Of a stretch of DNA of 49,024 bases, positions 3,045-43,371 are shown piece after piece. The notes beneath the pieces are model-generated. The model saw only the letters and a program-made list of their open reading frames with translations. It was not told the origin of the DNA and did not search any database. A program made the translations under genes and the position numbers. Origin of the DNA: a virus; UHGV virus genome UHGV-0384005; one strand, given 5' to 3'. Within the stretch, counting starts at the first letter, position 1. Each line of letters starts with the position of its first letter.

Positions 3045-3045
3045 G

Positions 3046-8674: not shown

Positions 8675-9448
8675 CTATTTATCAGCGACTGCAGGTGCCG
8701 CTAATTTTGCAGATAACGCCTCAAGTTTCTCGATGGCCAGCACGAAATGAGCAGGTAAAACCTTTTCCTCCGGCGTACTGATATCGGTGATCGGTAACTC
8801 TTTATGGGACATGCTCCGGCGACCGCCACGAACAACATCACGCAATAATTCCCGCTCACAAGCTCTCATGTTCTCCAGCGCGACTTCCGCCGCCGTGAGT
8901 ATCCTCCGCAGTTCGGCAGCTATCGCTGGGATATCATCAACTGTAATCGGATTGGGCGCCGGGTTTCTGCATGCGCGGCGCAACGCCATCCAAACCCCAC
9001 TTACCCATGCATTACGGTATTGAAAGCTCTGCGCTATATCGTTAATCAGTCCTCGCAGTTCCTCTTTCTGTCGCCAGTTCAACGGCTCACCAGCGCATTT
9101 TGGAACGGGTTCTACATAGCCATATTCACCATTCTTCCGGATAGCTGGCAGCACCTCGTTCGTTACCCACTTGCGGAATCGCCACGCGGTGGTTCCATGC
9201 TTTACTGCATCGCGGCAGCGGAGGATCAGGGTGTAGAGGCCGGATTCGTTGATGATATTGGCTTCACCCTGACGACCTATGTTAAACATAGACCGCTCAT
9301 CATCGTCCAATCGTGCGATAGCCTGCGTAACATTCTGGATATTTAAGGCAGTGCAAATGTCATTTGCCACAAACCACGGCTCACCATCAACCATCACCAC
9401 GCGTACCGGGTGGTTTTCCTGAAATGAAAATACGGCAAGAGCGCTCAT
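8675..9448 (-). CDS. Antirepressor with an N-terminal Bro-N domain
   Basis: FSFQENHPVRVVMVDGEPWFVANDICTALNI...INESGLYTLILRCRDAVKHGTTAWRFRKWVTNEVLPAIRKNGEYG matches the Bro-N/Ant consensus. Last gene of a minus-strand operon. Confidence 0.8.
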   Translation of the reverse strand: MSALAVFSFQENHPVRVVMVDGEPWFVANDICTALNIQNVTQAIARLDDDERSMFNIGRQGEANIINESGLYTLILRCRDAVKHGTTAWRFRKWVTNEVLPAIRKNGEYGYVEPVPKCAGEPLNWRQKEELRGLINDIAQSFQYRNAWVSGVWMALRRACRNPAPNPITVDDIPAIAAELRRILTAAEVALENMRACERELLRDVVRGGRRSMSHKELPITDISTPEEKVLPAHFVLAIEKLEALSAKLAAPAVADK

Positions 9449-9675
9449 TCTCCCCCCTTATCATTCAGTTGTTCCGACAGGGACAGCGAGCAGCCTCGCG
9501 CTTCCTGTGTCAGTTCGCGAGCGACGATAAGGAGTTTGGCAGCCTCCTGCATATATAGCGATGCTTCATAACTGGAGATTGTGCGGTGGACTGATGATAC
9601 CAGTGCTTCTACTTGCGCCAGGCGCTCGTCAATCAGCTCCAGATGGCCCTGGATATTTAGCTGTACCTGATTCAT
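9445..9675 (-). CDS. Hypothetical protein of the antirepressor operon, coiled-coil-like. Start overlaps the upstream gene.
   Basis: 76-aa ORF, translationally coupled on both sides. Confidence 0.5.
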   Translation of the reverse strand: MNQVQLNIQGHLELIDERLAQVEALVSSVHRTISSYEASLYMQEAAKLLIVARELTQEARGCSLSLSEQLNDKGGE

Positions 9676-9836
9676 ACGGCTACCCCGCTAACCGGGATAC
9701 GGGCAGACAGAACGAGCACAAAGCGGCTGGCAAACTGGCGACGGGCTTCCCGTTCGGACGGGGCGATCGTGGTCAGTTGATGAATATGGGATTTTTTATC
9801 TGTGCGGACGACTGCCGCGAAAGTGAATTTGAACAT
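9672..9836 (-). CDS. Small leading ORF of the ant operon (MFKFTFAAVV...), in the icd-like position
   Basis: Internal ATG of ORF 9672..10001; the 5' part of that ORF is the structured leader/sRNA region. Confidence 0.35.
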   Translation of the reverse strand: MFKFTFAAVVRTDKKSHIHQLTTIAPSEREARRQFASRFVLVLSARIPVSGVAV

Positions 9837-9997
9837 GGTGCACACTCCAGTTTGGTTATGGGTGCTACCACCAGAGTTCTCACGCTCTAAGGGGTGGTAG
9901 CCCAGACGGGGGTGAGAATACCGGCCCAAACGACACCGGCCAGCCTTTCGGCTGCCCCGCCTGGGCCACCATAATTCAGGTGTGCGCAGGCACTGAC

Positions 9998-10095
9998 ACA
10001 AAAAAACACGCTGGCGCGTGTTGTGCGCGTTTGGGGATTCGGGTTCTCACGCCCGGCTGCGGATTTTGCCGCAACGCGCTAACTCTACCGTCCAA
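9998..10095 (-). ncRNA. Candidate c4/CA-like antisense regulatory RNA at the head of the antirepressor operon
   Basis: Minus-strand promoter-like TTGACG-18-TAGAGT (~10111..10082). Several stem-loops. An intrinsic terminator (ACACGC-tggc-GCGTGT + U7) ends near 10000. The motif GTGAGAAC recurs twice downstream in the mRNA leader (9877-9886, and a complementary UUCUCAC at ~9913). Confidence 0.4.
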
Positions 10096-10133: not shown

Positions 10134-10149
10134 CTGTGACCAGTCACAG
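10134..10149. promoter_or_regulatory. LexA-box-like palindrome CTGTGACCAGTCACAG (CTGT-N8-ACAG) upstream of the ant-operon sRNA promoter. Also a member of the GTGAC-NN-GTCAC family.
   Basis: Sequence match to the CTGT-N8-ACAG frame. The centre is GC-rich, unlike the canonical AT-rich boxes. Confidence 0.35.
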
Positions 10150-15200: not shown

Positions 15201-16268
15201 TTTCGCGATGATTTCGTAGCCAGTGCGCAGGCCTGTGTTGCCTTTCCCTTCCGCTGATGATTTGCGGTCGTTATCCAGTGTGCAGGTAATTTTTGCGGCC
15301 GGGTACAGGTTCACCAGCTGCTCAACAACATGAATCATGTTATTTGCCGATACGGCGACAACTACGGCATCAAAGCGCTTTTTCGGATCCTTTCTAGTCG
15401 CCAGCCATACTGATGCGCCTGTTGCGAAGCCTTCGGCTACCGCGATATTTTGCGCGCCTTTCAGGTTGCCGATCACGAAGCAGGAACCCACGAAATCACC
15501 GGTGATGACGGCGTTGGTCTGAAATTTACCGCCACGCTTATCAATACGCTGCCAGCCGACTATTTGCCCGTCTTTGCGCCCGTCCAGATGGGACAGAGGG
15601 ATAGCCATATAAGTGGTTGGCCCGCTGCTCCATCTGGCGCTATCGTGACTGGTCACGCGACGTACATCACACGCGCTAAATACGTCACGAATGCCTTTTT
15701 TCACAGCGTAAGGCCATGAACCGTCCTCAGCAGGCGCATGCTCCCAGGCGTGATGGAATGCAAGCCAGCCAAGCAAACGCTCATGGTCTAATTGGTTGTT
15801 TCGTAAGTCATTAATGCGTTGCTGTTCGGCGCGGCGTCTGCGGGCTTCTGCCTGGCGTTCGATGCGGGCGCGTTCTTCTGCTGGCTGTGCGACCACGGTC
15901 GCATGATTTTTTTGTTGGTCACGGCGGTACTCGGAGAAAAGGAAGGAAAACCCACTCCAGGAACCAGCATCACTGCCCTTCTGGACAAAGTTTATAAAGG
16001 GGTAGCTGATGCCGTCTTTGCTGTGTTCCAGGCGCGAATAGATTTCGACGCGGCCTTTGAGGCTCTTTTCCAGTGCTTCTGGCGAAGGGCCATTATAGGT
16101 GGAATAGCGTTCCTGTCCGCCGCGCGGATTCAACTGGATGTTATCAGCACAGGCTGGCCAGTTAATGCCAGCCATCTTTGCCAGCTCTGTTAGCTCATCC
16201 CGTGCAGCTTCAAGCAATGAGAACGGATCGCTGCCAAAGCGATCCGCATAGAATTCTTGTAAGGTCAT
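12264..16268 (-). CDS. repA: Multifunctional replication protein RepA (primase-helicase), N15 RepA-like
   Basis: 1334 aa. Walker A GMGSGKST. Its size and position (between the tel/ant region and cB) match N15 RepA, which I recall as about 1324 aa. Confidence 0.9.
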   Translation of the reverse strand: MTLQEFYADRFGSDPFSLLEAARDELTELAKMAGINWPACADNIQLNPRGGQERYSTYNGPSPEALEKSLKGRVEIYSRLEHSKDGISYPFINFVQKGSDAGSWSGFSFLFSEYRRDQQKNHATVVAQPAEERARIERQAEARRRRAEQQRINDLRNNQLDHERLLGWLAFHHAWEHAPAEDGSWPYAVKKGIRDVFSACDVRRVTSHDSARWSSGPTTYMAIPLSHLDGRKDGQIVGWQRIDKRGGKFQTNAVITGDFVGSCFVIGNLKGAQNIAVAEGFATGASVWLATRKDPKKRFDAVVVAVSANNMIHVVEQLVNLYPAAKITCTLDNDRKSSAEGKGNTGLRTGYEIIAKFNGIKCVYPIFEDDPQLECSDFNDLHKLRGLRETTRQLFGKANRLSTSTDLLTLTLNKLKTIKRDNRRTFAKELLQAVDIGMLTCPVPNSPSDLFKMFCIVLREMDLENVYRATIKDHIARRLNRKCRTAQAPRSFSDRITDPNKRPQHITYKRFETSVMTEEVLQYVQQLQGIVIVRAGMGSGKSTGLLRPLMHDADRGVSVAHRVSLIGGLWEMMTEKKGAKADILHYQDPGYQEMAPYANKLTICINSIVKGCWQPLMRQHDYFGFDEATQGLRAILSGKAMENPVAVFNTLIDALARTELHPIMVDADANDLLVDLAELAMKRREEMGLPAWLQIHVIELPVDVRNRETGEPIRVFYTEKDRIMTEVIKAVELGEKIMLATDSSTFAEDVTATLRQRYPEKKFLCVNQKSKPEPEVEAFTNKPKQMVKKYDGLIYSPSISSGVSIEQKHFDRHFGMFCGEVVPSDAIQMLRRDRTAKEFIIGFDKVRAKRETDPKKIERAFAQALLATAGMNGEVTDVVFDGDRISMGVANTDFTRMKIKAAAIEASARNDYACNMICIMHSDGYKVAPLASDELANSIGKELRKEAREIVWEQTLDLHLNIETPDESEREEILKKRALTLEEQAKLVRWDIENELKIPVNEDNLKFYFDGARDKVRRYETMLLDEVTARRYDREESAINFTYAFKQTGQWQYFVVTAMTREQADEAFQAKHPGITDYKVKATPAVEVGMRGFYALKSAALRQYFIDCGIDPETMTGEATQARMKYARDKLMTDERRDLLNNVLRIGGFMTPKGKPKVPEALFKNICESLGLKTDKRRAREGDKRPTIRFVDPESAAFMMEILENRQEDGLSLQLHKGDKKATEVDHGLDLNIYMDHKTRSTDGQNLDAPHSVISEALATLPVPVPEAWAMTALSDDELATMNTWSPASIAMTFASLYLTEFMDRLSSNELRRLREYITGMATGGYDAPEAFYG
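15644..15657. repeat. Palindrome CGTGACTGGTCACG (family GTGAC-NN-GTCAC), inside repA
   Basis: Identical 14-mer at 22759. Related site at 10134. Confidence 0.35.
15887..15904. repeat. SopB-box-like palindrome GTGCGACCACGGTCGCAt, one arm mismatch, inside repA coding sequence
   Basis: Member of a 5-copy family resembling the F sopC core TGGGACCACGGTCCCA. Confidence 0.55.
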
Positions 16269-16421: not shown

Positions 16422-16518
16422 TCGTCTTTTTTTCGGCTGCCGCAATCTGATTCAACCGCGATAAATTATAGATCGCATTAAACCAGATTTATAGGCAGCA
16501 ATAAACCCCGTTATTCTT

Positions 16519-17138: not shown

Positions 17139-17202
17139 TTATAGCTGGCTATAAAATTTATAAATTATACCTGGCTTTAATTTGAAGTTATTGGTTATAA
17201 TA
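17139..17202. promoter_or_regulatory. Candidate CB operators in the cB-cro intergenic region. Perfect palindrome TTATAGC-tg-GCTATAA (17139-17154) and two degenerate copies (~17165-17180, ~17187-17202).
   Basis: Read directly from the sequence. The tripartite layout is typical of OR regions. Confidence 0.45.
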
Positions 17203-17207
17203 ATTTT

Positions 17208-21397: not shown

Positions 21398-22437
21398 CCA
21401 CTATTACCAGAGAACGGGCTCAGAAAATTATTGATGCTGCCGACGAGGTTATCACTGCACTGGCTGGCACAAATGAGGATGTTCACCCTGAAAGCGACAA
21501 CATGCTCCGCCTGTGGGATGACCTGAATGACCGTTACGCCCCGCCTGAAGTTGTGCGTGAGCTGGCGCGTATCGCGCTGGCATCACTGGAGGCTGCATCC
21601 CGATCAACAACTTCATACCCTGAAAAGCTGCCATGCCCTGTGTTTCTGGAGCCTGGGTTACGGTTTAGTAAAGGGGTTAAAACGTCACTAATGCTGGATG
21701 CTCTACAGCGCCGCGCAGAATACCACGCCGAGCTTGACGCGATGACGCCGGAACAGCGAGCAGAGCATGATGCTGGAATTGCTGAATTTAAAGCGATGCT
21801 TGGACAGCCGGTCATAACGGATAACGTTGGTTTGATAACGGATAAGCAGCCAGCGCCGGTGATGGTTGCTGAATGTGAGATTTGCGGTAAAGGCTGTACC
21901 AATGCCAATCATCCTATGAAAGCGGTTGCGGTTGAGCCTCCGCTGAATGTCTCAGAGAGAGCAGAGCTCGAGGCTTTTCGTCGTGCGGCTTGCAATCATG
22001 GTTTTCCCCCAGGAGCACATACACAGGGAGTTGTAGGGTGTGAAAAATGTTGTGGTCGTAGAGTCATGATTTGGGAGTTAGGAGGATGTCACACCCATCA
22101 AATACCGGGTTTGAAGCAAGAAGAAATCACACCAGGTATGGCGCTGCATCTTGGGATTGGCAGCGACGGCACCAACGGTAAAGCACTTGCCAGAGGAGAT
22201 ACTTTTGCCAACGAGCTTGTAACTCAGGATGGTTCGGAGGATTCAAAACGTCTTGATTGGTTAGATGCCCAGAATAAAAGGCTTAATGAGTATTACGGAA
22301 CATCATACGGCTGGAAATTTGACGCAAATTTCCAGAGGAACGCCATGATGCTCAATGATAGCAACTATCCAGTACTGACTGTTCGCCAGGCCATTGATGA
22401 GGCTATCGCAGCAGCAACTAAAAAGGAGGGAGCCTGA
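21394..22437 (+). CDS. Hypothetical Cys-rich protein (347 aa; CEICGKGC, CEKCCGRR)
   Basis: ORF; overlapping start and stop. Confidence 0.5.
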   Translation: MTTITRERAQKIIDAADEVITALAGTNEDVHPESDNMLRLWDDLNDRYAPPEVVRELARIALASLEAASRSTTSYPEKLPCPVFLEPGLRFSKGVKTSLMLDALQRRAEYHAELDAMTPEQRAEHDAGIAEFKAMLGQPVITDNVGLITDKQPAPVMVAECEICGKGCTNANHPMKAVAVEPPLNVSERAELEAFRRAACNHGFPPGAHTQGVVGCEKCCGRRVMIWELGGCHTHQIPGLKQEEITPGMALHLGIGSDGTNGKALARGDTFANELVTQDGSEDSKRLDWLDAQNKRLNEYYGTSYGWKFDANFQRNAMMLNDSNYPVLTVRQAIDEAIAAATKKEGA

Positions 22438-22763
22438 TGGCCATGACCCCAGCAGAACGGCAGAAGTTGCGCCGTGAGAGACTAAAGAAATCTGGTACCA
22501 GCCGCCGCGACTGGATCCTTGAACCAGAAGAACTTCGAATGTTAGCTGAAATTTGTGTACAGCGCCGTCCGGGCAGAACCCCATATTCCGAAAATGAGGT
22601 TATTGGGTTACTGATTAGGAAAAACTACAAAGAACTTCAGAAAACCCTGTCCGGATCCTGCCAGCGATGCGGTCAGAAGTTTCCAATATCTGAATGTATT
22701 TGTGACGGTGATGGTTCATGTGCGTTAACGACAATCCGTCTGAAACTCGCCATCAAAGCGTGA
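22437..22763 (+). CDS. Hypothetical protein (108 aa, basic N-terminus, Cys cluster)
   Basis: ORF. Confidence 0.5.
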   Translation: MAMTPAERQKLRRERLKKSGTSRRDWILEPEELRMLAEICVQRRPGRTPYSENEVIGLLIRKNYKELQKTLSGSCQRCGQKFPISECICDGDGSCALTTIRLKLAIKA

Positions 22764-22772
22764 CTGGTCACG
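22759..22772. repeat. Palindrome CGTGACTGGTCACG (family GTGAC-NN-GTCAC), overlapping the RBS region of gene 22784
   Basis: Identical to 15644-15657. Confidence 0.35.
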
Positions 22773-22783: not shown

Positions 22784-23005
22784 ATGGATAAGGTGACATT
22801 ACTTTTAGACAAGCTACAGCAACGAACTAAAAGCAGTCTGGCCAGTGGCGGTGATGGTTTTGTTTTTGCGTCAATGCTGGCATTTGATGTAGGTCTGAAT
22901 ACGAGGACGATACGCGGGATACTGGATGCCGAAGTATCCCGTGGTGCTCTTGAAAAGAAAGAGCGAGGTACAGGCCGCGCGCATAAATATCGTACAATTC
23001 AGTGA
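22784..23005 (+). CDS. Hypothetical small protein, possibly winged-helix
   Basis: ORF; last gene of the early + strand string. Confidence 0.45.
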   Translation: MDKVTLLLDKLQQRTKSSLASGGDGFVFASMLAFDVGLNTRTIRGILDAEVSRGALEKKERGTGRAHKYRTIQ

Positions 23006-23054
23006 GTTGAATCAAAATTTTTTGTAAATTCAGCTATATCGTTTGCGAATGCAA

Positions 23055-23070
23055 CTGTATTTTTATACAG
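23055..23070. promoter_or_regulatory. LexA (SOS) box aaCTGTATTTTTATACAGta, overlapping the promoter region of gene 23094
   Basis: Matches TACTGT-(AT)4-ACAGTA at nearly every position. Confidence 0.6.
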
Positions 23071-23093
23071 TATAAACAATGTTGGTAAGGATA

Positions 23094-23324
23094 ATGGTAG
23101 ACAATTCGATGGCAGAAATGGTCGTATCAGGTTGTGAAAAATTGGATGCCCAACTAAGCGATCTCGACGCTGTTCTTGATATGGTTAGTATCGCGATAGC
23201 ATCGCCAGAGGTCAGCCTGCATCTTAGGGAAGTTAACCGTATGCTCCACATGTCCCGCAGGATGGTGAATACGTGTCGGGATTTGAATGCAGCTGAAGGA
23301 AGAGCCACCCAACCAATTAAATAA
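23094..23324 (+). CDS. Small protein (76 aa) behind a LexA box. Candidate SOS-inducible antirepressor or induction factor.
   Basis: AAGGAT RBS. A terminator follows. The 2007 report that the N15 antirepressor belongs to the SOS regulon (and Tum/GfoA-type small antirepressors) supports the inference. Confidence 0.45.
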   Translation: MVDNSMAEMVVSGCEKLDAQLSDLDAVLDMVSIAIASPEVSLHLREVNRMLHMSRRMVNTCRDLNAAEGRATQPIK

Positions 23325-23327
23325 AAG

Positions 23328-23356
23328 AAAAAGGTGAGAATGTTCTCACCTTTTTT
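23328..23356. terminator. Bidirectional terminator AAAAAGGTGAGAA-tg-TTCTCACCTTTTTT between gene 23094 and hicB
   Basis: Read directly from the sequence. Confidence 0.6.
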
Positions 23357-23369
23357 CATTCCGGTCCTG

Positions 23370-23804
23370 TCACTGCCGTGCAGCGGCAACAGATACGCCG
23401 ATATTTTTGTTTAGCTGATGCAAGGCCAGCTCAATAGTTTCGGCCTTTGAAGAGTGCTCGACGTCCAGCAGGCGATCAATCTGAGTCCCACTTTTCCCCA
23501 ACTTGCGGGCCAGCTCGGCTTTGCGCGTTCCCGTTTCAATCATGGCGTTGTGCAGTGCCGCTTTCATTGCGGGGAGAACGGGAAGATAAACAACGTACTC
23601 CCCTTCTTGCGGTTCGCTACCCTGTGGAACGGGGCGTCGTTCTTCAATCTCAATAGCAACCGCAGCCACTAAGCCATAACTTGCCTCAAGCAGCGCCTCT
23701 TCTACGGAATAGCCTACAGAGTTCATCAGGGGTAAATCTCTGCAGGAGACTATATACGCACCGGTATCAGTGTCGTATTCCAATTTTACCGGGTAGTTGA
23801 ACAT
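23370..23804 (-). CDS. hicB: HicB-family antitoxin (RNase H-like fold plus C-terminal HTH)
   Basis: 144 aa, downstream of and co-directional with hicA. Domain assignment is by recollection of HicB family layout. Confidence 0.75.
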   Translation of the reverse strand: MFNYPVKLEYDTDTGAYIVSCRDLPLMNSVGYSVEEALLEASYGLVAAVAIEIEERRPVPQGSEPQEGEYVVYLPVLPAMKAALHNAMIETGTRKAELARKLGKSGTQIDRLLDVEHSSKAETIELALHQLNKNIGVSVAAARQ

Positions 23805-23846
23805 ACAGATCCCCTCACGCGTGTTGTTGCTGAAAAAGGCTGGGGC

Positions 23847-24029
23847 TTAAAGCCCCAGGTCCTTCATTATTTTTTTCCTTAGTGGTTCTGGCATTTCTTT
23901 AGAACCGTGGTCCGGAAAAATTGACCTCATACCGTTCAAACTGACTTTTTGGTGGCTTCCGCCTCCTGGTGCCTTTTTGAACTCGGCCCCCTGCTGAACT
24001 AGCCAGCGTCTGAACTCCGAATATTTCAC
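23847..24029 (-). CDS. hicA: HicA-family mRNA interferase toxin
   Basis: GSHQK motif and PEPLRKKIMKDLGL C-terminus. The start was moved to an internal GTG with an AAGGAAG RBS; the long AT-rich N-terminal extension of ORF 23847..24119 is unlikely to be coding. I could not fully reconcile the displayed sequence with the ORF track near 23940, so the boundary is approximate. Confidence 0.7.
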   Translation of the reverse strand: MKYSEFRRWLVQQGAEFKKAPGGGSHQKVSLNGMRSIFPDHGSKEMPEPLRKKIMKDLGL

Positions 24030-24202
24030 AAGCTTCCTTATGTAACTTCTTCTTCGTGGGCAAAATAATAATAACATACAAGATGAAAAACACAACAAAT
24101 AAATATAAAAATACATCATAAATGTGTATAAAAAGACTGGATGTGTTTAGCGATGAGAGTTACAGTTCGTGTCATTGAAGCAAAGCAATAACCGATAACC
24201 AG

Positions 24203-24686: not shown

Positions 24687-24704
24687 GTGCGACCACGGTC
24701 GCAC
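24687..24704. repeat. SopB-box-like palindrome GTGCGACCACGGTCGCAC (perfect; arms extend to 10 bp, TCGTGCGACC..GGTCGCACGA)
   Basis: Family of 5. Sits about 20 bp upstream of the candidate late promoter. Confidence 0.6.
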
Positions 24705-24723
24705 GAACTAAAAACGAAAAAGG

Positions 24724-24752
24724 TTGGCAAAATAGCCTTTTTTAGGTATCGT
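24724..24752 (+). promoter_or_regulatory. Candidate late promoter TTGGCA-17-TATCGT, preceding a short terminated leader
   Basis: Pattern match only. Position is analogous to lambda PR'. Confidence 0.3.
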
Positions 24753-24787
24753 TTTTCTAAGTTGGGATTTTTACGCCTGACTACTAA

Positions 24788-24810
24788 TAACCGCCGCCAG
24801 GCGGTTTTTT
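24788..24810 (+). terminator. Intrinsic terminator AACCGCC-gccag-GCGGTTTTTTT (tR'-like position)
   Basis: Read directly from the sequence. Confidence 0.6.
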
Positions 24811-24946
24811 TGTGCCTGAAAAGTGGGCGCGGGATAAGTTGCAGCTCATCCCGCAGTAAACCCATAACCTAGCTATAGGCTAAACCCTAAGCCCACCCGC
24901 GATGCGCATCGCTGGGTTAGCTTACCCAGGCAAAACCATAATAGCC

Positions 24947-30279: not shown

Positions 30280-30400
30280 CACAGGCCAGGGGGGTAGGGG
30301 GGTAAAATCCCTGACCCCTTTCGCGCTTCAGGACTGCCGCTCCCGGTAGATTTTTGCGCGTGAGAAATAAGAAATTTTTTTTTGAGCATATTTAGAGGTG
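30280..30400. other. Candidate cos/packaging-site region (G-rich GGGGGGTAGGGGGG tract, AT-rich run) between the HNH/zinc-knuckle genes and terS
   Basis: Positional analogy to HK97-type phages. No cohesive-end sequence identified. Confidence 0.25.
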
Positions 30401-30407
30401 TTTCGAC

Positions 30408-30842
30408 ATGGGATCAGGAGTGAGAGCACCTGGCGGCGGTCGTAAGTCGAATAACACAGGAACGCAGGTTAGTTCTCTTACAAGAGCCGTTTCCCCGCCT
30501 GATGAGCTTCTTGGTGAAATGGCTGTTGATGCCTGGCGACGAACGTGCAAAATCCTGATCAACAGGGGTACGTTCGAGATGGAAGATTGTTATTTGCTGA
30601 TGGAATACTGCAATACAGTGCAGCTTCTGTACGACGCAAATCAGGAAATTAAAAGCGATGGTATTGGCGACGACACGGCTGCAGGCGGACAAAAGCTGGG
30701 CGCGGCGGTTAAGGCCAGGAGCAAATATATCAGCGAACTTATTCGTCTCAGTGTTGTGTTGAAACTGGACCCCAACAGCCGCGTCAGGAAAAAGCAGCCA
30801 GGAGATAACACCAACCCAGGAAACGAATTCGACGAATTTTAA
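30408..30842 (+). CDS. Terminase small subunit (P27 family)
   Basis: 144 aa, immediately upstream of terL. The family assignment rests on its length, its position between the HNH gene and terL, and a general resemblance I could not pin to a specific motif. Confidence 0.8.
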   Translation: MGSGVRAPGGGRKSNNTGTQVSSLTRAVSPPDELLGEMAVDAWRRTCKILINRGTFEMEDCYLLMEYCNTVQLLYDANQEIKSDGIGDDTAAGGQKLGAAVKARSKYISELIRLSVVLKLDPNSRVRKKQPGDNTNPGNEFDEF

Positions 30843-30868
30843 TTGGGACTTTAGTCCCTTTTTTATGG

Positions 30869-32593
30869 GTGGAGTATATGGCGGCATACCCGAGCGTCAA
30901 TCTGGCGAACGCTTATGCACGCGATGTACTAAGCGGGAAAATCCTCGCATGTCGATATATCAAACTGGCATGTCAGCGCCATTTTGATGACCTGAAAAAA
31001 TCACTGGATAAGAACTACCCCTATCAATTCAACAGGGATTTAGCTGAACGTGCATGCAGATTCGTTCAGTTGTTACCCCATTCCAGCGGGGATTTAGCCG
31101 GGCAAAAGTTGATACTGGAACCGTGGCAGAGTTTCATTTTCTGCTCAATTTTTGGGTGGGTAACAAAAACAGATAAAAAGCGTCGGTTTCGCGAAGCGTA
31201 TATCCGGGTAGCCAGGAAAAATGGTAAGTCATTTTTTGCGGCCGGGATTGGCACTTACATGTTTTGCGCTGATGGTGAAAACAGTGCAGAAGTTTATTGT
31301 GGTGCCACGACTATGGCGCAGGCAAAGAAGGTTTTCACCCCAGCTAGGCAAATGGCGGACCGATTACCTTCTCTCCGGGCTAAATTTGATATCTCAGTAT
31401 GGGTGGACAGCCTGACCCGCCCTGATGGTTCCGTATTCGCACCAATGGCAGGGAAACCTGGCGACGGTGACAGCCCGCATTGCGCGATTATTGATGAATA
31501 TCACGAGCATGATACGGATCACATGTATGAAGCGATGACGATGGGGATGGGGGCGCGTTCTCAGCCACTAACACTCATTATCACGACTGCAGGTACATCT
31601 CTTGAATCACCATGTTATGACAAAGACAAAGAGGTAAAAGAGGCTCTCAGCGGCATAGTCAGCAATGAGCGTCTGTTCGGCATGATTTACGAGCTGGATG
31701 ATGGCGATGACTGGACTGACCCTAAAAACCTGATTAAAGCGAACCCCAACCTTGATGTTTCCGTCAAGTACAGCGATTTGGTTGAGTTATTGGAAGTCGC
31801 AAAACAGGTCCCGCGTAAGGTAAATGCCTTCAAAACTAAACGCCTCAACATCTGGGTGTCTGGTAAGTCGGCGTACTACAACATGACGCAATGGCAGGCG
31901 GCGGAAGATAAGTCTCTGCGGTATGAAGATTTTGCCGGCGAGGATTATTACCTCGGTCTGGACCTTGCGCGCCGTCTTGATCTTAATGCCGGCGTTGGTG
32001 TTTTTGTCCGGGAAATCGAAGGCAAAAAGCACTACTACTGCGTAAGCCCGATATTTTGGGTACCTGAAGATACAATCAACAGTACGGATCCGAAAGAAGC
32101 TAAAACTGCTGATCGTTATCGTAAATTCAAAGAAATGGGTGTTCTGGAGGCAACAGATGGAGCAGAGGCAGATTATCGCGAGATTCTGGCCAGCATTATC
32201 GACCTGCAGGACATCCATAAGGTTCGTATCAGCGAGATCCCCATAGACCCTAGCGGAGCAACAGCGCTCAGTCATGAGCTTCAGGATAGCGGTTTTGAAC
32301 CGATTTCCATCCGGCAGGATTACACCAACATGTCTCCACCAATGAAAGAGCTTGAAGCAGCGCTCGCCGGTGGACGCTTCCATCATGACGGAAACCCTGT
32401 TCTGTCATGGTGTATCAGCAATGTCATCGGCAAAACGGTACCGGGTAGCGATGATATCGTCCGACCAACGAAAGGTGACAAGCAGTCAAAAATTGACGGC
32501 GCAACGGCGCTTTTTATGGCTATAGGTCGTGCAATGTTGAATGGCCGGGTGAGTAATTCATCCGTTTACGACGAGGAAGATATAGCATGCTAA
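30869..32593 (+). CDS. Terminase large subunit
   Basis: 574 aa. ATPase plus nuclease domains at the expected position. Confidence 0.9.
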   Translation: MEYMAAYPSVNLANAYARDVLSGKILACRYIKLACQRHFDDLKKSLDKNYPYQFNRDLAERACRFVQLLPHSSGDLAGQKLILEPWQSFIFCSIFGWVTKTDKKRRFREAYIRVARKNGKSFFAAGIGTYMFCADGENSAEVYCGATTMAQAKKVFTPARQMADRLPSLRAKFDISVWVDSLTRPDGSVFAPMAGKPGDGDSPHCAIIDEYHEHDTDHMYEAMTMGMGARSQPLTLIITTAGTSLESPCYDKDKEVKEALSGIVSNERLFGMIYELDDGDDWTDPKNLIKANPNLDVSVKYSDLVELLEVAKQVPRKVNAFKTKRLNIWVSGKSAYYNMTQWQAAEDKSLRYEDFAGEDYYLGLDLARRLDLNAGVGVFVREIEGKKHYYCVSPIFWVPEDTINSTDPKEAKTADRYRKFKEMGVLEATDGAEADYREILASIIDLQDIHKVRISEIPIDPSGATALSHELQDSGFEPISIRQDYTNMSPPMKELEAALAGGRFHHDGNPVLSWCISNVIGKTVPGSDDIVRPTKGDKQSKIDGATALFMAIGRAMLNGRVSNSSVYDEEDIAC

Positions 32594-32766
32594 TGACGTT
32601 TTTGAGTTTTTTTATCGGCCTCGCCGGAGCCGCGTTACTGTCTGCCGGTGCCTGGCTTATCTTACCTGCAGCAGGGCTTATTACTGGCGGTTTGATTTGC
32701 CTGCTGTGGTCTTTTTTAATAGCGAAATCGATGTCCGCCAGCGTAATTAAATCGGGGGGTGAATAA
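32587..32766 (+). CDS. Un-tracked small two-TMD membrane protein (59 aa, MLMTFLSFFIGLAGAALLSAGAWLILPAAGLITGGLICLLWSFLIAKSMSASVIKSGGE), wedged between terL and portal
   Basis: Hand-translated ORF. Its start overlaps the terL stop, and its TAA overlaps the portal ATG (TAATG). Confidence 0.45.
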   Translation: MLMTFLSFFIGLAGAALLSAGAWLILPAAGLITGGLICLLWSFLIAKSMSASVIKSGGE

Positions 32767-34025
32767 TGTTCATTCCCCAGATGTTTCGGGGTAAATCTCA
32801 GTCTGGTGGTGGCTTCTGGCAGACTATGCTGGGTGGTGTGAGTTCCAGCCAGAGCAAAGCGGGAATAATGGTCACACCTGAAACTGCGATGGCGCTATCG
32901 GCGGTCCGCGCATGTGTAACGCTTCTGGCAGAATCGGTGGCGCAGCTGCCGTGTGAACTTTACAGGCGAGGAGCTAACGGAGGCCGTGAACGTGCGACTG
33001 ACCACCCTGTTTATGATCTGATACATTCCCAGCCCAATAAAAAAGACACCTCGTTTGAATACTTTGAGCAGCAGCAGGGCCTGCTCGGGCTGGAGGGGAA
33101 TTGCTACTCGATCATCGACAGGGACGGGAAAGGGTATCCCCGCGAATTAATCCCGGTTAATCCCAAAAAAGTCATCGTCCTGAAAGGGCCTGACGGGATG
33201 CCTTATTATGAACTCCCCGAAATTGGCGAAACGTTGCCAATGCGCATGATGCATCATGTGAAGGTTTTCTCGCTGGATGGTTATATCGGCAGTTCTCCAA
33301 TCCAGACGAACGCCGACGTTCTTGGGCTAAGTCTGGCAGTGGAAGAGCATGCTTCTCAGGTTTTTCGCCGTGGCTGTACGATGAGCGGCGTTATTGAGCG
33401 CCCAAAAGAAGCTGCGACAATCAAAAGCCAGGATGCTATCGACCGCCTGCTGGCAAAGTGGACGGACAGATATTCCGGCGTTAGAAACGCCTTCTCTGTT
33501 GCATTGCTTCAGGAGGGGATGAGCTACAAGCAGTTATCTCAGGACAATGAGAAAGCGCAGCTGTTGCAGTCCCGCCAGTGGGGGGTGGAGGAGGTGTGCC
33601 GGCTCTATAAAATTCCGCCGCATATGGTGCAGATGTTGGCGAAAGCCACGAATAACAACATTGAGCACCAGGGACTGCAGTTTGTGATGTACACGCTGTT
33701 AGCCTGGCTGAAGCGTCATGAAGGCGCATTAATGCGCGATCTGCTTTTACCCAGCGAGCGCGGTGATTTGTACATTGAATTTAATGTTTCTGGCCTGCTG
33801 CGCGGGGATCAGAAGTCACGCTATGAATCTTATGCGTTAGGCCGTCAGTGGGGCTGGTTATCGGTTAATGACATTCGCCGCATGGAGAACCTTCCCCCCA
33901 TCGCCGGAGGGGACAAATACCTGACGCCTCTGAATATGGTCGACAGTGCGAGCATTTTGCCCGGAAATAACAAGCCTACAGCGCAGCAAATGACGGAAAT
34001 TGAAGCCATTCTGGCGAGAGCGTAA
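32766..34025 (+). CDS. Portal protein (HK97 family)
   Basis: 419 aa. Size and position fit; sequence resembles HK97-type portals. Confidence 0.9.
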   Translation: MFIPQMFRGKSQSGGGFWQTMLGGVSSSQSKAGIMVTPETAMALSAVRACVTLLAESVAQLPCELYRRGANGGRERATDHPVYDLIHSQPNKKDTSFEYFEQQQGLLGLEGNCYSIIDRDGKGYPRELIPVNPKKVIVLKGPDGMPYYELPEIGETLPMRMMHHVKVFSLDGYIGSSPIQTNADVLGLSLAVEEHASQVFRRGCTMSGVIERPKEAATIKSQDAIDRLLAKWTDRYSGVRNAFSVALLQEGMSYKQLSQDNEKAQLLQSRQWGVEEVCRLYKIPPHMVQMLAKATNNNIEHQGLQFVMYTLLAWLKRHEGALMRDLLLPSERGDLYIEFNVSGLLRGDQKSRYESYALGRQWGWLSVNDIRRMENLPPIAGGDKYLTPLNMVDSASILPGNNKPTAQQMTEIEAILARA

Positions 34026-34057
34026 AGCAATTCTTCATCATTATTACAGGCTGACTA

Positions 34058-34405
34058 ATGAAATATATCTTCTCTATTGGCGTGGACATACTTGTTCTCG
34101 TCAGCATTGTCATGGGTTTTTACTTAGGAAATGAATCCCTTCTGAACATTCCACATTTCATTGGGTGGTTTGTCGGGGTTGTCAATTTACAGGCTCATTT
34201 AAGTACGAAATCAAAAGAGGGAATGGCGGAAAAATATAAATCGCAGCCACTTTTATTCCGCATATATGACGTTTTGACTGACGTTATTTTTGTGAGCTTC
34301 TGTGCCTATCAGGGGTGGATGTTTATGGCCGCTGTTTATTCAGCAGCTGCATGCCTTAAGGCTGAATTTAAGCATTCGATGGAAAAGAAAATATGCAAAA
34401 AATGA
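34058..34405 (+). CDS. Membrane protein (3-4 TMDs), AT-rich moron inserted between portal and prohead protease
   Basis: Hydrophobic ORF. AT-rich relative to the flanking head genes. Confidence 0.55.
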   Translation: MKYIFSIGVDILVLVSIVMGFYLGNESLLNIPHFIGWFVGVVNLQAHLSTKSKEGMAEKYKSQPLLFRIYDVLTDVIFVSFCAYQGWMFMAAVYSAAACLKAEFKHSMEKKICKK

Positions 34406-35310
34406 TTAACCTGCCGCACCTCGCTCAGATGGTCTTCGGTGTTCCTCACTATGTGACACAGCAGACGATGGACGCAGTGAAAGCGGTTTTACTTCCCCGC
34501 ATTCAGGGAACGGTGACAGACCCAGCCATCACGATGGCGTTAAATCCAGATGATTCGCCATCCCCTGAATATGTTCAGCCAGCAGGGGGTATTGCTGTGA
34601 TACCTGTTCACGGGATACTGGTTCCTCGTCGCGGGCAAATTACAGCGATGTGTACCGAACTGACGAGTTATGAGCGTATCCGCAGCCAGCTGCATTCAGC
34701 ATTAAATGACCCCTCCATCAGTGAAATTGTTCTGGATATCAATTCCGGAGGTGGTGCAGCGGCAGGTTGCAAAGAGCTGGCGGATTATATTTACCAGTCG
34801 CGAGAAACGAAACCGATCACCGCGATTGTGAATTTCAACGCTTTTTCTGCTGCGTATTTCATTGCTTCAGCATGCAGCAAAATCGTCATCAGTCAGACCA
34901 GCGGCGTCGGTTCCATCGGCGTCATCATGGAGCACCTGGATACGTCAAAGCTGGAAGAAAACGTGGGGGTAAAATTTACTGCGCTATACCGGGGAGATAA
35001 CAAAAATAATGCAACGCCACATGCACCGTTGAGCGAATCGGCCCTTGCAATGATCGACAAAATGCTCGACGACATGTACGAAATATTTACCTCATCAGTT
35101 GCCGAATATCGTGGCCTCAAACAGCAGGCAGTCGTTGATACTCAAGCTGGTCTGTATTTCGGTGGCGATGCCATTTCAGCAGGTCTTGCCGATGAAATAT
35201 CGGATCCTCAGTCTGCGATTAATGCCATTGCGGCAAAGTACAAACAACCTCAACAAACCACTTCCATAAAGTTGCAGGCCGCCGCGATGGACCTGCAAAC
35301 CAGAATGTGA
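34393..35310 (+). CDS. Prohead protease (S49/ClpP-like)
   Basis: ILDINSGGGAAAG...SIGVIMEHLD motifs; sits between portal and major capsid. Confidence 0.85.
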   Translation: MQKMINLPHLAQMVFGVPHYVTQQTMDAVKAVLLPRIQGTVTDPAITMALNPDDSPSPEYVQPAGGIAVIPVHGILVPRRGQITAMCTELTSYERIRSQLHSALNDPSISEIVLDINSGGGAAAGCKELADYIYQSRETKPITAIVNFNAFSAAYFIASACSKIVISQTSGVGSIGVIMEHLDTSKLEENVGVKFTALYRGDNKNNATPHAPLSESALAMIDKMLDDMYEIFTSSVAEYRGLKQQAVVDTQAGLYFGGDAISAGLADEISDPQSAINAIAAKYKQPQQTTSIKLQAAAMDLQTRM

Positions 35311-35336
35311 CCCGGCGCTAACGCGTCATTACCAGA

Positions 35337-35364
35337 AAGCAGCCTGTTGGCTGCTTTTTTTATG
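35337..35364 (+). terminator. Stem-loop AGCAGCC-tgtt-GGCTGCT plus a T-run between the protease and major capsid genes (attenuator-like)
   Basis: Read directly from the sequence. Confidence 0.35.
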
Positions 35365-35382
35365 CCAAAAAGAGAGAAAACT

Positions 35383-36669
35383 ATGCCACAGATTGAAGAA
35401 TTACGTCGTCAGCGTGCGGGTATTAATGAACAGGTACAGGCCCTGGCCACGATTGAAACTACCGGTGGAACGCTGACAGCGGAGCAGTTAACCGAATTTG
35501 CCAGCCTGCAGCAGCAGTTCACGGATATCAGCGCCAAAATTGAGCGTCTGGAAGCGGCTGAACGTGCTGCAGCTCTGGTTGCCAAACCGGTTAAAGGCAC
35601 ACAGCATGCTCCTGGTATCAGCGTTAAGGCTGAGCCAAAGCAATATACCGGCGCAGGCATGACCCGTCTGGTAATGTCGATTGCAGCAGCACAGGGTAAC
35701 GTCCAGGATGCCGCAAAATTTGCAGCTGAAGAGCTGAATGACCAGTCTGTCTCGATGGCCATCAACACTGCCGCTGCGTCAGGCGGTGTTCTTATTCCGC
35801 AAAACCTGCACAGCGAGGTGATCGAACTGCTACGCGATCGCACCATCGTTCGTAAGCTGGGCGCGCGATCCATTCCGCTGCCGAACGGTAATATGGCGCT
35901 GCCGCGTCTGGCCGGTGGTGCGACGGCGAGCTACACCGGGGAAGGCAAGGATGCGAAAGTATCCGAAGCCCGCTTTGATGATGTGAAACTCACCGCGAAA
36001 ACCATGATTGCAATGGTGCCAATCTCCAACCAGCTGATTGGTCGTGCCGGCTACAACGTGGAGCAGCTGGTCCTGCAGGATATTCTGACCGCGATCTCTG
36101 TTCGTGAAGATAAAGCCTTTATGCGTGATGACGGTACCGGTGATACGCCTGTCGGTATGAAAGCGCGAGCAACCCAATGGAACCGCCTGCTGCCGTGGGA
36201 AGCTGCTGCAGAGGTTAATCTGCAGACGATTGATGCGTATCTCGACAGCATCATCCTGATGGCGATGGACGGGAACAGCAACATGATCAGCTGCGGCTGG
36301 GGCATGTCGAACCGTACTTACATGAAACTGTTCGGGCTGCGCGACGGGAACGGTAACAAGGTCTACCCGGAAATGGCCCTGGGTATGCTGAAGGGATATC
36401 CGATTCAGCGTACCAGCGCTATCCCGGCAAATCTCGGTGACGGCGGCAAAGAGTCAGAAATTTATTTCGCTGACTTTAATGACGTGGTTATCGGTGAAGA
36501 CGGCAACATGAAAGTGTCGTTCTCGCAGGAAGCCTCCTACCAGGACGGGGATGGCAATCTGGTTTCCGCGTTCTCCCGTAACCAGTCGTTGATCCGTGTG
36601 GTGACGGAGCATGATATCGGCTTCCGTCATCCGGAAGGTCTTGTACTCGGGACAAAAGTGCTGTTTTAA
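35383..36669 (+). CDS. Major capsid protein (HK97 fold)
   Basis: About 428 aa. N-terminal coiled-coil delta-like region then capsid domain. Start moved to MPQIEEL. Confidence 0.9.
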   Translation: MPQIEELRRQRAGINEQVQALATIETTGGTLTAEQLTEFASLQQQFTDISAKIERLEAAERAAALVAKPVKGTQHAPGISVKAEPKQYTGAGMTRLVMSIAAAQGNVQDAAKFAAEELNDQSVSMAINTAAASGGVLIPQNLHSEVIELLRDRTIVRKLGARSIPLPNGNMALPRLAGGATASYTGEGKDAKVSEARFDDVKLTAKTMIAMVPISNQLIGRAGYNVEQLVLQDILTAISVREDKAFMRDDGTGDTPVGMKARATQWNRLLPWEAAAEVNLQTIDAYLDSIILMAMDGNSNMISCGWGMSNRTYMKLFGLRDGNGNKVYPEMALGMLKGYPIQRTSAIPANLGDGGKESEIYFADFNDVVIGEDGNMKVSFSQEASYQDGDGNLVSAFSRNQSLIRVVTEHDIGFRHPEGLVLGTKVLF

Positions 36670-36684
36670 CCGATCCTGCACTCT

Positions 36685-36702
36685 GTGCGACCACGGTCGC
36701 AC
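36685..36702. repeat. SopB-box-like palindrome GTGCGACCACGGTCGCAC (perfect; arms extend to 12 bp, CTCTGTGCGACC..GGTCGCACAGAG)
   Basis: Family of 5. Confidence 0.6.
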
Positions 36703-36727
36703 AGAGTAAAAGCACGTAATCTCCCAG

Positions 36728-36752
36728 GCCCGCAGCAGCGGGTTTTTTCTTT
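36728..36752 (+). terminator. Intrinsic terminator CCCGC-agca-GCGGG plus T6 after the major capsid gene
   Basis: Read directly from the sequence. Confidence 0.55.
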
Positions 36753-36766
36753 TCAGGAGCAAAACG

Positions 36767-37138
36767 ATGACAACGAAAGCGGCAAAAGCAGCGGCAGCTG
36801 CAACCGGGGATGTGAAAAAGCCGGATGAACTGACGCCGGAAAATACAGTGGACGGGAATGACGGTCAGAATACTGCAGCGGGTTCAGGTGATACCGGTGT
36901 TGATCTGACCGGAAGTGAAACAAACGGGGCCACGGGCCTGACGGGAGCAGAAGTGGCGCGGAAAGCGGTTTTTTTCCTGGGACCCTATCATCGTTATTCA
37001 CGCGGTGATACGGCCTGTTTTGATGCTGAGTACGCAGAAAAACTGGTTGAACGCCATATTGCGGTATGGCCAGAAGATGCGGAAAAGGCGCTGAGTCCCC
37101 GCAAGGGAGCCGATGACCATGATACTGACATTGGATGA
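36767..37138 (+). CDS. Head-associated protein (Gly/Thr-rich N-terminus), function unknown
   Basis: ORF in the head-completion block. Confidence 0.4.
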   Translation: MTTKAAKAAAAATGDVKKPDELTPENTVDGNDGQNTAAGSGDTGVDLTGSETNGATGLTGAEVARKAVFFLGPYHRYSRGDTACFDAEYAEKLVERHIAVWPEDAEKALSPRKGADDHDTDIG

Positions 37139-37436
37139 TGTGAAAACCCAGCTCCGTCTGGAGCCGGATTTCACGGAGCATGACGACATGCTCACTAAAA
37201 TGGTGGCGGCTGCGCAAAAGAGTATTGAGCGTGACTACTACTGCAAACTGGTGGGAAGCGATGACGAACTGCAGGCGCTGCCGGAAGGGGTACGCGGTTT
37301 TGTGGCGGATGAAGATATCCAGCTGGCCATGCAGTATCTGGTCGGGGATGCGTATCTGAATGGTTTCACCGGTCAGTGGCTGGAGACGGCTGCGGTCCGG
37401 CACCTTCTTTTCCCGTTGCAGGAGAACACCGTATGA
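37113..37436 (+). CDS. Head-tail connector (gp6-like)
   Basis: MTMILTLDDVKTQLRLEP... is typical of phage gp6-like DNA-packaging/connector proteins. Confidence 0.55.
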   Translation: MTMILTLDDVKTQLRLEPDFTEHDDMLTKMVAAAQKSIERDYYCKLVGSDDELQALPEGVRGFVADEDIQLAMQYLVGDAYLNGFTGQWLETAAVRHLLFPLQENTV

Positions 37437-37783
37437 GCCTGAAGCCGGAAGAGATGACCTGCCGTCTTTCGATTGGGTATATGCAATCCGGCCGGGGGCC
37501 GCTGGGTGAACATCTGCCGGAACAACTGGTCGCGACCGGGAAAGCCTGGGCGAAGCGCGAACTGGTGTCGGGCAGAAAGGTCCGCACACTGGATCAACTG
37601 CAGGTTGTTGAAACATGTCTTTTTACCACTCATCCGAACCTGAATATTGATATCGACTGGAAAATAACAACGTCTGACCGGATTTATACCGTTCGTAACG
37701 TCGAACGTCTTGCGGACCGCATCATCATCACAGGGGAGGCAGACGCACGTCATGATCGAGCTGGCATTAAAGACAGCACTTGA
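37433..37783 (+). CDS. Head closure / head-tail adaptor protein
   Basis: Position; GGAGAA RBS; internal start of ORF 37376. Confidence 0.45.
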   Translation: MSLKPEEMTCRLSIGYMQSGRGPLGEHLPEQLVATGKAWAKRELVSGRKVRTLDQLQVVETCLFTTHPNLNIDIDWKITTSDRIYTVRNVERLADRIIITGEADARHDRAGIKDST

Positions 37784-38141
37784 ACGCCTGACCGGGCTGA
37801 ATGTTTACCCTCTGCTCCTGCCTGATGAGCTGCAGGAGGGGATTACTTACCAGTGTATCTCGGATCCGGAACTGTACGCCGGACTGTTGCGCACAGGTCT
37901 GATTGCGGGCCGCTTCCAGATAGCGATTCATCTGCTTAATGACTACACCCGCCTGTTACAGCTGGATAAGAAAATCAGCGCGGAATGGACCGCTATCGTG
38001 CATGGCCAGCTGGAGGGTTTTCCCGTGCAGAATGTGGTCCGTGGTGGAATACAGCAGAGTAAAACGGTACTGACCAGCGGCAATATTCAGTACCGGCTCG
38101 TGCGGGATTTTACCTTTCACTACCGGGACGTCTCACCATGA
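37752..38141 (+). CDS. Tail completion / head-tail joining protein
   Basis: Position; internal start of ORF 37710. Confidence 0.45.
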   Translation: MIELALKTALERLTGLNVYPLLLPDELQEGITYQCISDPELYAGLLRTGLIAGRFQIAIHLLNDYTRLLQLDKKISAEWTAIVHGQLEGFPVQNVVRGGIQQSKTVLTSGNIQYRLVRDFTFHYRDVSP

Positions 38142-38539
38142 TCACTATGGACGTAAAAGGGCTGGACGAGCTGGAGCGGCAGCTTACTGCGCTCGGTGAA
38201 AAGGTCGGCGCGAAGGTGTTACGTGATGCAGGGCGTGAGGCGCTGAAAGTGGTGGAAGAAGACATGAAACAACATGCCGGCTTCGACGATGCGTCCTCTG
38301 CAGAGCATATGCGTGATTCCATCAAAATTCGCGCCTCCACCCGGAAAGGTCGCGGAAATACGGTGGTCACCCTTCGGGTTGGCCCCAGCAAAAAGCATTA
38401 CATGAAAGCGCTGGCCCAGGAGTTCGGGACGGTTAAACAGGTTGCCGATCCGTTCATCCGTCCGGCACTGGATTACAACGTCCAGAAGGTTCTGCGCATT
38501 CTGACCGTAGAAATCCGCAATGGCATTCAGAACAGGTAG
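38138..38539 (+). CDS. HK97 gp10-family tail component
   Basis: MITMDVKGLDELERQL... N-terminus, characteristic of the family. Confidence 0.55.
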   Translation: MITMDVKGLDELERQLTALGEKVGAKVLRDAGREALKVVEEDMKQHAGFDDASSAEHMRDSIKIRASTRKGRGNTVVTLRVGPSKKHYMKALAQEFGTVKQVADPFIRPALDYNVQKVLRILTVEIRNGIQNR

Positions 38540-38572
38540 CAACCGCTGCCCACTATTTAAGAGAGAATCATT

Positions 38573-39055
38573 ATGGCTGATGAAAATAACACGCCAAAAT
38601 CATCCCCTGAGTACGCAATGCTTCCTGCCGGGACGGTGGTGAAGTTTGGGGAGGTAGGAGCCGCTGTAGCGGCATTGAAACCGCTGATTAACTGCAAGGC
38701 GCTGGGCGCGACAGGTCAGACGGGAGGATTTGTCGACTGTACCACCCTGCTGGACAAGAGTAAGCAGTCGGTGTCAGACCTGCCGGAAGGGCCGGAGAAA
38801 TCGCTGGGCTTCATTGACGACCCGGAAAACGAAGATTTCACCGCATTCCTCAATGCAGCGGAACAGCGTAAGACCGTTCAGTTTTATATTGAGCTGCCGA
38901 ACAAACGAACGGCCTCAATGATCCTTGCGCTTTCAGGCTGGCAGATGAACGAAATCACCGCCCCTGCCAGTGAAGTTATCCAGATTACGGTGCAGGGTAA
39001 GCAAAACAACATTAAATGGGGGATCGCCGCCCCGGCGCCAGATGCCGGAGCGTAA
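38573..39055 (+). CDS. Major tail protein
   Basis: Position before the G/GT/TMP genes. A terminator-like hairpin follows. Confidence 0.6.
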   Translation: MADENNTPKSSPEYAMLPAGTVVKFGEVGAAVAALKPLINCKALGATGQTGGFVDCTTLLDKSKQSVSDLPEGPEKSLGFIDDPENEDFTAFLNAAEQRKTVQFYIELPNKRTASMILALSGWQMNEITAPASEVIQITVQGKQNNIKWGIAAPAPDAGA

Positions 39056-39070
39056 TCCGTTTCCCGTTAC

Positions 39071-39096
39071 ACACCGCCTCCGGGCGGTTTTTTTTC
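39071..39096 (+). terminator. Hairpin ACCGCC-tccg-GGCGGT plus T8. Copy 1 of a recurring AACCGCCTCCGGGCGGTTTT element.
   Basis: Read directly from the sequence. Confidence 0.55.
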
Positions 39097-39117
39097 GTCT
39101 GAAAAACAGGATACACC

Positions 39118-39480
39118 ATGTCTGAATTTAGCCTCTCCGCACTGAAAAATGCACTGCTCAAAACGAAATCCACGCCTACTGAAACTGAAATTTTAGGCAC
39201 AAAGGTTTACCTGCGTCGGCTGACGGCGGCTGAGCTTATTGATCATGAAGATGCACTCATCGAGGCGCAGACCTCTGGCAATGCCCGCATGGCGTCTGAG
39301 CTGAGCGTACAGATTGTTATCGACAGCCTGGTTCAGCCTGACGGCTCGCCAATTAAAGCCAAAGACAAACCCACGGCGAAGGAGTTGCTGGCGGCACACG
39401 ATAACGTTGTGCTTCTGGATGCCATCGACAAAGTGAAAAAACACGCCATCGGTAAGCTGGAAACCGCCGAAAAAAACTGA
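39118..39480 (+). CDS. G: Tail assembly chaperone (lambda gpG-like)
   Basis: 120 aa, ending at the A_AAA_AAC slippery site. Confidence 0.7.
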   Translation: MSEFSLSALKNALLKTKSTPTETEILGTKVYLRRLTAAELIDHEDALIEAQTSGNARMASELSVQIVIDSLVQPDGSPIKAKDKPTAKELLAAHDNVVLLDAIDKVKKHAIGKLETAEKN

Positions 39481-43363: not shown

Positions 43364-43371
43364 GGATCCTT

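Follow-up and report, generated by a model that had tools for sequence, protein, structure and literature searches.

A LexA-boxed antC orthologue as the probable link between DNA damage and prophage induction in an N15-type telomere phage-plasmid of Citrobacter freundii

The window, a stretch of 49,024 nucleotides, carries at the locus studied here a LexA (SOS) box, a putative promoter that overlaps it, a small rightward ORF and a hairpin terminator that this ORF shares with a convergent hicB gene (Table 1). The window, this locus included, was 100% identical to NZ_CP032182.1, the 49,806-bp plasmid unnamed4 of Citrobacter freundii AR_0116. The left half of the window showed 77–82% DNA identity to N15, phiKO2 and related telomere phages of Klebsiella, Enterobacter and Escherichia, and from sopBA to the methylase gene it followed an N15-like order (repA, cB, cro, Q, gp46, gp47, the antC ORF, a toxin-antitoxin pair, gp50, gp51, methylase). 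This order was interrupted at 19.2–22.4 kb, where no ORF passed the N15 match filter. The virion proteins shared 30–39% identity with those of N15, compared with 65–93% in the plasmid and regulatory half, indicating that the genome is a mosaic. NZ_CP032182.1 was deposited as circular; given that the window encodes a protelomerase (6583–8502) and keeps the gene order of N15-like phages, a linear plasmid form with hairpin ends is probable for the prophage.

Table 1. Features of the window, the N15 counterpart of the small ORF, and protein identities to N15.
Feature	Coordinates	Strand	Remarks
Putative -35 hexamer TTGCGA, antC promoter	23043..23048	+	TTG invariant in 11 aligned relatives
LexA (SOS) box AACTGTATTTTTATACAGTA	23053..23072	.	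core CTGT-N8-ACAG at 23055-23070
Putative -10 hexamer TACAGT	23066..23071	+	within right half of LexA box; invariant in 11 relatives
GGTA motif	23096..23099	+	invariant in 11-sequence alignment; upstream of conserved ATG
antC orthologue, 71 aa (likely start)	23109..23324	+	alternative, non-conserved start at 23094 gives 76 aa
Bidirectional intrinsic terminator	23327..23356	.	common to antC (+) and convergent hicB (-)
OL operators	16466..16504	.	upstream of repA
cB prophage repressor, 202 aa	16519..17127	-	HTH and degenerate S24-like domain; presumed AntC target
OR operators	17139..17203	.	TATAGCTGGCTATA-type sites, between cB and cro
N15 counterpart ORF, presumably antC	N15 record 39604-39831 (15605-15832 in L001)		absent from N15 GenBank and RefSeq annotation
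SopA			93% protein identity to N15
CB			92% protein identity to N15
Methylase			85% protein identity to N15
SopB			80% protein identity to N15
Cro			79% protein identity to N15
gp46, gp47			77% protein identity to N15
TelN			76% protein identity to N15
RepA			76% protein identity to N15
Q			72% protein identity to N15
Virion proteins	1-3600 and 30400-48900		30-39% protein identity to N15

The pattern CTGT-N8-ACAG occurred twice in the 49-kb window (0.52 matches expected by chance), and one of the two matches, the 16-mer CTGTATTTTTATACAG, occupied exactly positions 23055–23070 within the 20-mer box. The heterology-type index with which we scored every 20-mer of the window was derived from 18 E. 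coli SOS boxes, and its absolute values are approximate. On this index the box scored 2.79, within the range of the umuDC and dinD boxes, while the runner-up in the window scored 13.9. When the window was simulated 100 times with a first-order Markov model, no simulation reached 2.79 (best scores: minimum 8.8, median 12.9). The box is a near-consensus, strong LexA box and the sole one in the window, and the initial annotation, which had described a site close to the E. coli consensus here, was confirmed to the exact position. The second CTGT-N8-ACAG match, CTGTGACCAGTCACAG at 10134, was rejected as a LexA site; it scored worse than 15.5 and has a G+C-rich spacer. It is accounted for by a palindrome at 10136 of the GTGAC-NN-GTCAC family, which recurs at the same places in N15, and belongs to a different, partition-site-like element.

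The alignment of 11 upstream regions contained few invariant columns, namely the TTG of the −35 hexamer, the TGT and TACAGT that make up most of the box, the GGTA motif and a single ATG. The spacer between TTGCGA and TACAGT is 17 bp in the window, and TTG stood 17 bp from TACAGT in all 11 aligned relatives. A promoter scan with a threshold of 9/12 did not list the pair, which matches the consensus at only 8/12 positions; we retained it as a weak putative promoter on the grounds of its conservation. The LexA box spans the spacer and the −10 hexamer, an arrangement invariant in the 11 lineages, and the conserved TACAGT within its right half bears out the earlier proposal that the box overlaps the likely promoter of the small gene. 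Since the −10 hexamer overlaps the box, bound LexA would occlude RNA polymerase, and repression is presumed to work by such promoter occlusion.

The small ORF has three possible starts in frame (23079, 23094 and 23109) and a TAA stop at 23322–23324. Comparison with relatives (Nei–Gojobori, ungapped core) gave dN/dS values of 0.05–0.36 with nearly saturated synonymous sites, compared with 1.3–1.5 in two control frames, both of which lie on the ORF's own strand. These results indicate a protein-coding gene under purifying selection. The gene had initially been described as a 76-aa frame starting at 23094 behind an AAGGAT ribosome-binding site; the coding gene stands, and the start and the ribosome-binding site do not. 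The ATG at 23109, the second methionine, was invariant in all 11 aligned relatives, and a Citrobacter protein in GenBank (AXZ46031.1) is the 71-aa form beginning at this position. At 23094, phiKO2 has CTG in place of ATG, PhiR46_1 and YDC107_1 have an in-frame TGA after the ATG, and NAR688, KpLi5 and L018 lack the ATG; this codon was therefore rejected as the conserved start. The AAGGAT lies only 2 nt before this non-conserved ATG and is specific to the window. We consider 23109 the likely start codon on this pattern of conservation, which gives a product of 71 aa. The GGTA motif lies 9 nt from the conserved ATG in most relatives and 6 nt in one (L013), and it is kept even where the overlapping upstream ATG (23094–23096) is lost or has a stop after it; it may serve as a weak, distal Shine-Dalgarno element or as some other signal in the 5'-UTR. 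An antisense ORF at 23063..23389 (108 aa) is regarded as spurious.

Downstream of the ORF, the hairpin comprises 13 bp (−16.6 kcal/mol, z = −5.2; 0 of 200 shuffles folded as well). With an A-run on its left and a T-run on its right, it can terminate transcription in both directions, as the earlier description of a bidirectional terminator after the small gene had it; the terminator scan lists it on the minus strand. Between the end of the upstream gene (23005) and the LexA box, neither inspection of the sequence nor the terminator scan revealed a terminator.

AlphaFold2, run on a shallow alignment, predicted a helical hairpin for the product (helices at residues 2–29 and 33–66, mean pLDDT 83.5). 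Searches of Pfam, NCBIfam and PDB sequence profiles with the protein gave no meaningful match, and a Foldseek search of the model against PDB and BFVD returned generic helical hairpins only (E > 0.3). Two PHROG families matched both the window protein and the product of the corresponding ORF in N15: phrog_6301, whose function is not annotated (1e-24 and 1e-26, respectively), and phrog_10889, annotated 'anti-repressor' (8e-6 and 1e-8, respectively). An exact-sequence database look-up found no member of the family named AntC, all being 'hypothetical' except for one with an automatic 'PhoU domain-containing' label, which was disregarded.

Relatives of the gene were confined to one kind of phage in our searches. 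A tblastn search with the window protein found it in 13 phage records, all N15-like, and a profile search of 1.84 billion representative proteins returned nine families at E ≤ 0.001. All six contigs examined from these families had an N15-like phage context in the order repA, cB, cro, Q, gp47-like, antC ORF, optional toxin-antitoxin, methylase and lysis genes, one of them (L017, 3.2 kb) covering this order from the antC ORF onwards. Thirteen lineages kept the box, the promoter and the ORF, with protein identity falling as low as about 30%. In every homologue examined, a strong LexA box was the best-scoring site of its locus, lying 21–38 nt upstream of the called start, with one exception at 72 nt. 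This conservation supports an SOS/AntC induction route that would be general for the N15-like group.

In N15, genes 47 and 48 are separated by an unannotated stretch in which CCCTGTGTTTATATACAGTA stands 24 nt ahead of a small ORF. The product of this ORF shares 63% identity with the window protein over 68 aa (E = 3e-28). N15 proved to have just two strong LexA boxes, at 39562 before this ORF and at 21658 before gene 26. [quoted passage not shown] Since the other strong box stands at the umuD-like gene 26, the small ORF would have to be the published antC, an assignment that we infer by this elimination and from the PHROG label. The 2007 study (Mardanov and Ravin, J Bacteriol 189:6333) reportedly describes AntC of N15 as a LexA-repressed antirepressor acting on the CB repressor, and the small ORF would agree with this. 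The box at gene 26, TACTGTATAAAAAAACAGTT at 21658–21677 (L008), lies directly upstream of that gene, and both gene and box are absent from the window.

The window gene occupies the same place as N15 antC, following the gene 47 homologue and preceding a toxin-antitoxin pair that converges on it, and its LexA box likewise lies over the same −35/−10 pair. The two proteins are 63% identical, the presumed target repressors are 92% identical and the operators are conserved. The two also differ in several respects. The N15 box scored 6.09 on the same approximate index, compared with 2.79 for the window box, which is nearer to consensus and would predict tighter LexA repression in the window phage. 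The C-terminal tail of the window protein diverges from that of N15, and the host is Citrobacter. The neighbouring toxin-antitoxin pair is HicAB in the window, whereas N15, like phiKO2, has a RelE/ParE-type toxin with an HTH antitoxin (genes 48/49) at this position. Conservation is lowest for AntC among the regulators with a match in N15, at about 61–63% identity compared with 92% for CB, so that specificity cannot be assumed.

CB of the window matched HTH_3 and Peptidase_S24 in Pfam. In an alignment with LexA and lambda CI, it showed nothing that corresponds to LexA Ser119, Lys156 or the Ala-Gly cleavage site; the catalytic positions read GNQVQ, without the serine, and ITIQRL, with glutamine in place of the lysine. 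CB homologues from seven lineages were compared (six besides the window), none of which has the catalytic dyad, and the lysine position is occupied by Q, Q, Y, F, L, R and F. Lacking the Ser/Lys dyad in its S24-like domain, CB cannot self-cleave as judged at the sequence level, and the N15 repressor was found by experiment not to be cleaved on SOS induction (Silpe et al., PMC10432266, Fig. 1b). Both results uphold the earlier view of CB-type repressors as not self-cleaving. The intergenic stretch containing OR was about 82% identical to the CB operator region of N15 (record 34729–34793; 79 of 96 columns invariant), its operator part being nearly identical to that of N15. At OL, 71 of 87 alignment columns were invariant with respect to the annotated N15 CB operator region (record 34056–34094).

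A second anti-immunity locus, of the immA type, was observed on the minus strand at 8675–10088. Rfam matches comprised a C4 antisense RNA (9890–9976), isrK (10001–10075) and c4 a1/b1 targets (10036–10088), all upstream of small ORFs and a Bro-N protein (8675–9448) sharing 76% identity with gp30 of N15, annotated as 'anti-repressor Ant'. The immA anti-immunity system of N15 and P1 (AntA, Icd, AntB and the CA/C4 antisense RNA) was reportedly described by Ravin et al. in 1999. Like antC, it provides an antirepressor against CB in the same phage. It differs from antC in being controlled by a processed antisense RNA and not by LexA, in encoding other proteins and in lying 13 kb away; no Bro-N or Ant domain was found in the 71-aa protein with Pfam.

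Other phages use comparable antirepressors. Tum of coliphage 186 is one of them, reportedly described by Shearwin et al. in 1998. The logic is the same, in that a LexA box (TACTGTATGTTTATACAGTA) overlaps the p95 promoter and the product binds and inactivates a non-cleavable immunity repressor (PMC3121763). Tum, however, has 146 aa with a DinI-like C-terminal half, whereas the window protein has 71 aa and no DinI signal in Pfam, and the annotated −10 forms the left half of the box in 186 and the right half in the window. BLASTP of the window protein against Tum gave no alignment at E ≤ 100. The initial suggestion of a Tum/AntC-like induction factor thus stands in its AntC half, the gene being the positional and sequence orthologue of the LexA-boxed ORF of N15, and the resemblance to Tum is one of mechanism only.

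[quoted passage not shown] 2011, PMC3121763). They bind and displace uncleaved repressors, and since these are displaced and not cleaved, induction is reversible in principle. The Gifsy gene is the second of a dinI-antirepressor-irsA operon, whereas the window gene is monocistronic, first and alone between promoter and terminator; the gene upstream of it (22784–23005) had no Pfam match and belongs to phrog_13995. In addition, the Gifsy antirepressors act on short DicA-like repressors, whereas CB retains an S24-like domain, though a dead one.

Three other explanations of the locus were weighed, which together carry a small share of the probability. The strongest of them, still improbable, is that the small protein is SOS-induced without being an antirepressor, having another damage-linked role (e.g., DinI-like modulation of RecA and the SOS response) or a host target, and that phage induction depends on something else, such as the immA AntA system. 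A generic helical hairpin with no Pfam, NCBIfam or PDB match does not have its function dictated by sequence, the C4 RNA and Bro-N protein form a second anti-immunity locus in the same window, and DinI-type genes are likewise present in the SOS operons of phage 186 and of Gifsy prophages (PMC3121763). However, the small protein showed no similarity to DinI or Tum, is the orthologue of the one N15 protein that could be the published AntC and matches a PHROG family annotated 'anti-repressor', and it co-occurs with a non-cleavable CB in every lineage where both were examined.

Considerably less probable is that the LexA site mainly controls something besides the ORF, acting as a roadblock to read-through from the upstream early operon or as a regulator linked to the partition-type palindrome, and that the ORF is incidental. 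Although no terminator is visible between the upstream gene and the box, and a conserved palindrome, GTGACTGGTCAC, lies at 22760, about 290 bp upstream of the box, the box keeps a fixed register with the −35 and −10 hexamers and a fixed distance to the conserved start in 11 lineages, the ORF is under purifying selection and the unit has its own terminator. That the box is a chance A+T-rich inverted repeat and the ORF not a gene can practically be dismissed, for although small ORFs and A+T-rich palindromes are common in intergenic DNA and CTGT-N8-ACAG is expected about 0.5 times per window, no simulation reached the full 20-mer score, and the keeping of box and ORF across 13 lineages with saturated synonymous sites already refutes it.

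We therefore consider it very probable that the locus represents an antC module, carried by an N15-type telomere phage-plasmid of Citrobacter freundii, and that this module would induce the prophage by way of CB. In the lysogen, host LexA would sit on the near-consensus box, covering the spacer and the −10 hexamer, and keep antC silent. On DNA damage, activated RecA would prompt the self-cleavage of LexA, the antC promoter would fire, and a short monocistronic transcript ended by the hairpin would yield the helical-hairpin AntC of about 71 aa. AntC would then bind the non-cleavable CB and take it off the OR and OL operators, so that Cro, Q and RepA would be expressed and lytic growth would follow. 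The box, the conserved promoter, the coding ORF, the orthology to N15, the degenerate CB and the conserved operators are sequence-based parts of this scheme; the LexA control, the action of AntC against CB and the non-proteolytic nature of the repressor are transferred from the N15 literature by orthology. We infer by analogy with N15 that AntC binds CB in the window phage. With no terminator visible upstream of the box, it may also be speculated that read-through from the early operon after derepression could reinforce AntC synthesis.

A wider proposal, which we hold tentatively and think rather unlikely, is that the LexA box, the AntC hairpin and the dead-S24 CB belong together as a single SOS-sensing module of ancient origin, inherited jointly in all enterobacterial telomere phage-plasmids, and that AntC would dock on the relic S24 domain. 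The conserved core of AntC (LDxQLSDLDAVLDMVS...SPExSLH...MSRxMV..C) might then act across phages, because CB is 92% identical to that of N15 while AntC is only 63% identical. If this were true, cross-induction between co-resident N15-like prophages might occur, as described for Gifsy prophages.

The mechanism was already published for N15 in 2007, and the window gene is an orthologue and ordinary for its phage group. Neither Pfam nor NCBIfam has a model for the antC family, the N15 reference annotation omits the gene and other records call its product 'hypothetical', so automated annotation misses the gene that links induction to DNA damage. This concerns many N15-like phage-plasmids of Klebsiella, Citrobacter, Enterobacter and E. 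coli, and damage that includes SOS-inducing antibiotics. As by-products of the analysis, the probable start codon was fixed, and box, gene and dead-S24 CB were seen to travel together across the group.

Several further elements were observed in the window. HicB (144 aa) and HicA are encoded as a pair on the minus strand at 23370–24119 and converge on antC. In relatives, the slot next to antC holds HicAB (L012, L018), a Gp49/HTH pair (L013) or nothing (L010, L015, L017), and toxin-antitoxin cassettes thus appear to be exchanged there. GTGAC-NN-GTCAC palindromes occur at 10136–10147, 15645–15656 (inside repA) and 22760–22771, three compared with 0.01 expected, and N15 has them at the same three places (28550, 33237 inside repA, and 39269). 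A variant, GTGCGACCACGGTCGCAC at 24688–24705, is the site annotated in phiKO2 as a putative partition site. On these matches, the palindromes are probably the dispersed SopB centromere sites of N15-type plasmids. At 24720–24815, in front of the methylase gene, TTGGCA...TAGGTA resembles a late promoter and precedes a strong terminator (AACCGCCGCCAGGCGGTTTTTTT); phiKO2 and N15 carry annotations of a putative late promoter and terminator that match this region, which is presumably the site of Q antitermination. Finally, a gene resembling hexapeptide-repeat acetyltransferases (3046–3555, minus strand) adjoins the tail-fibre assembly gene.
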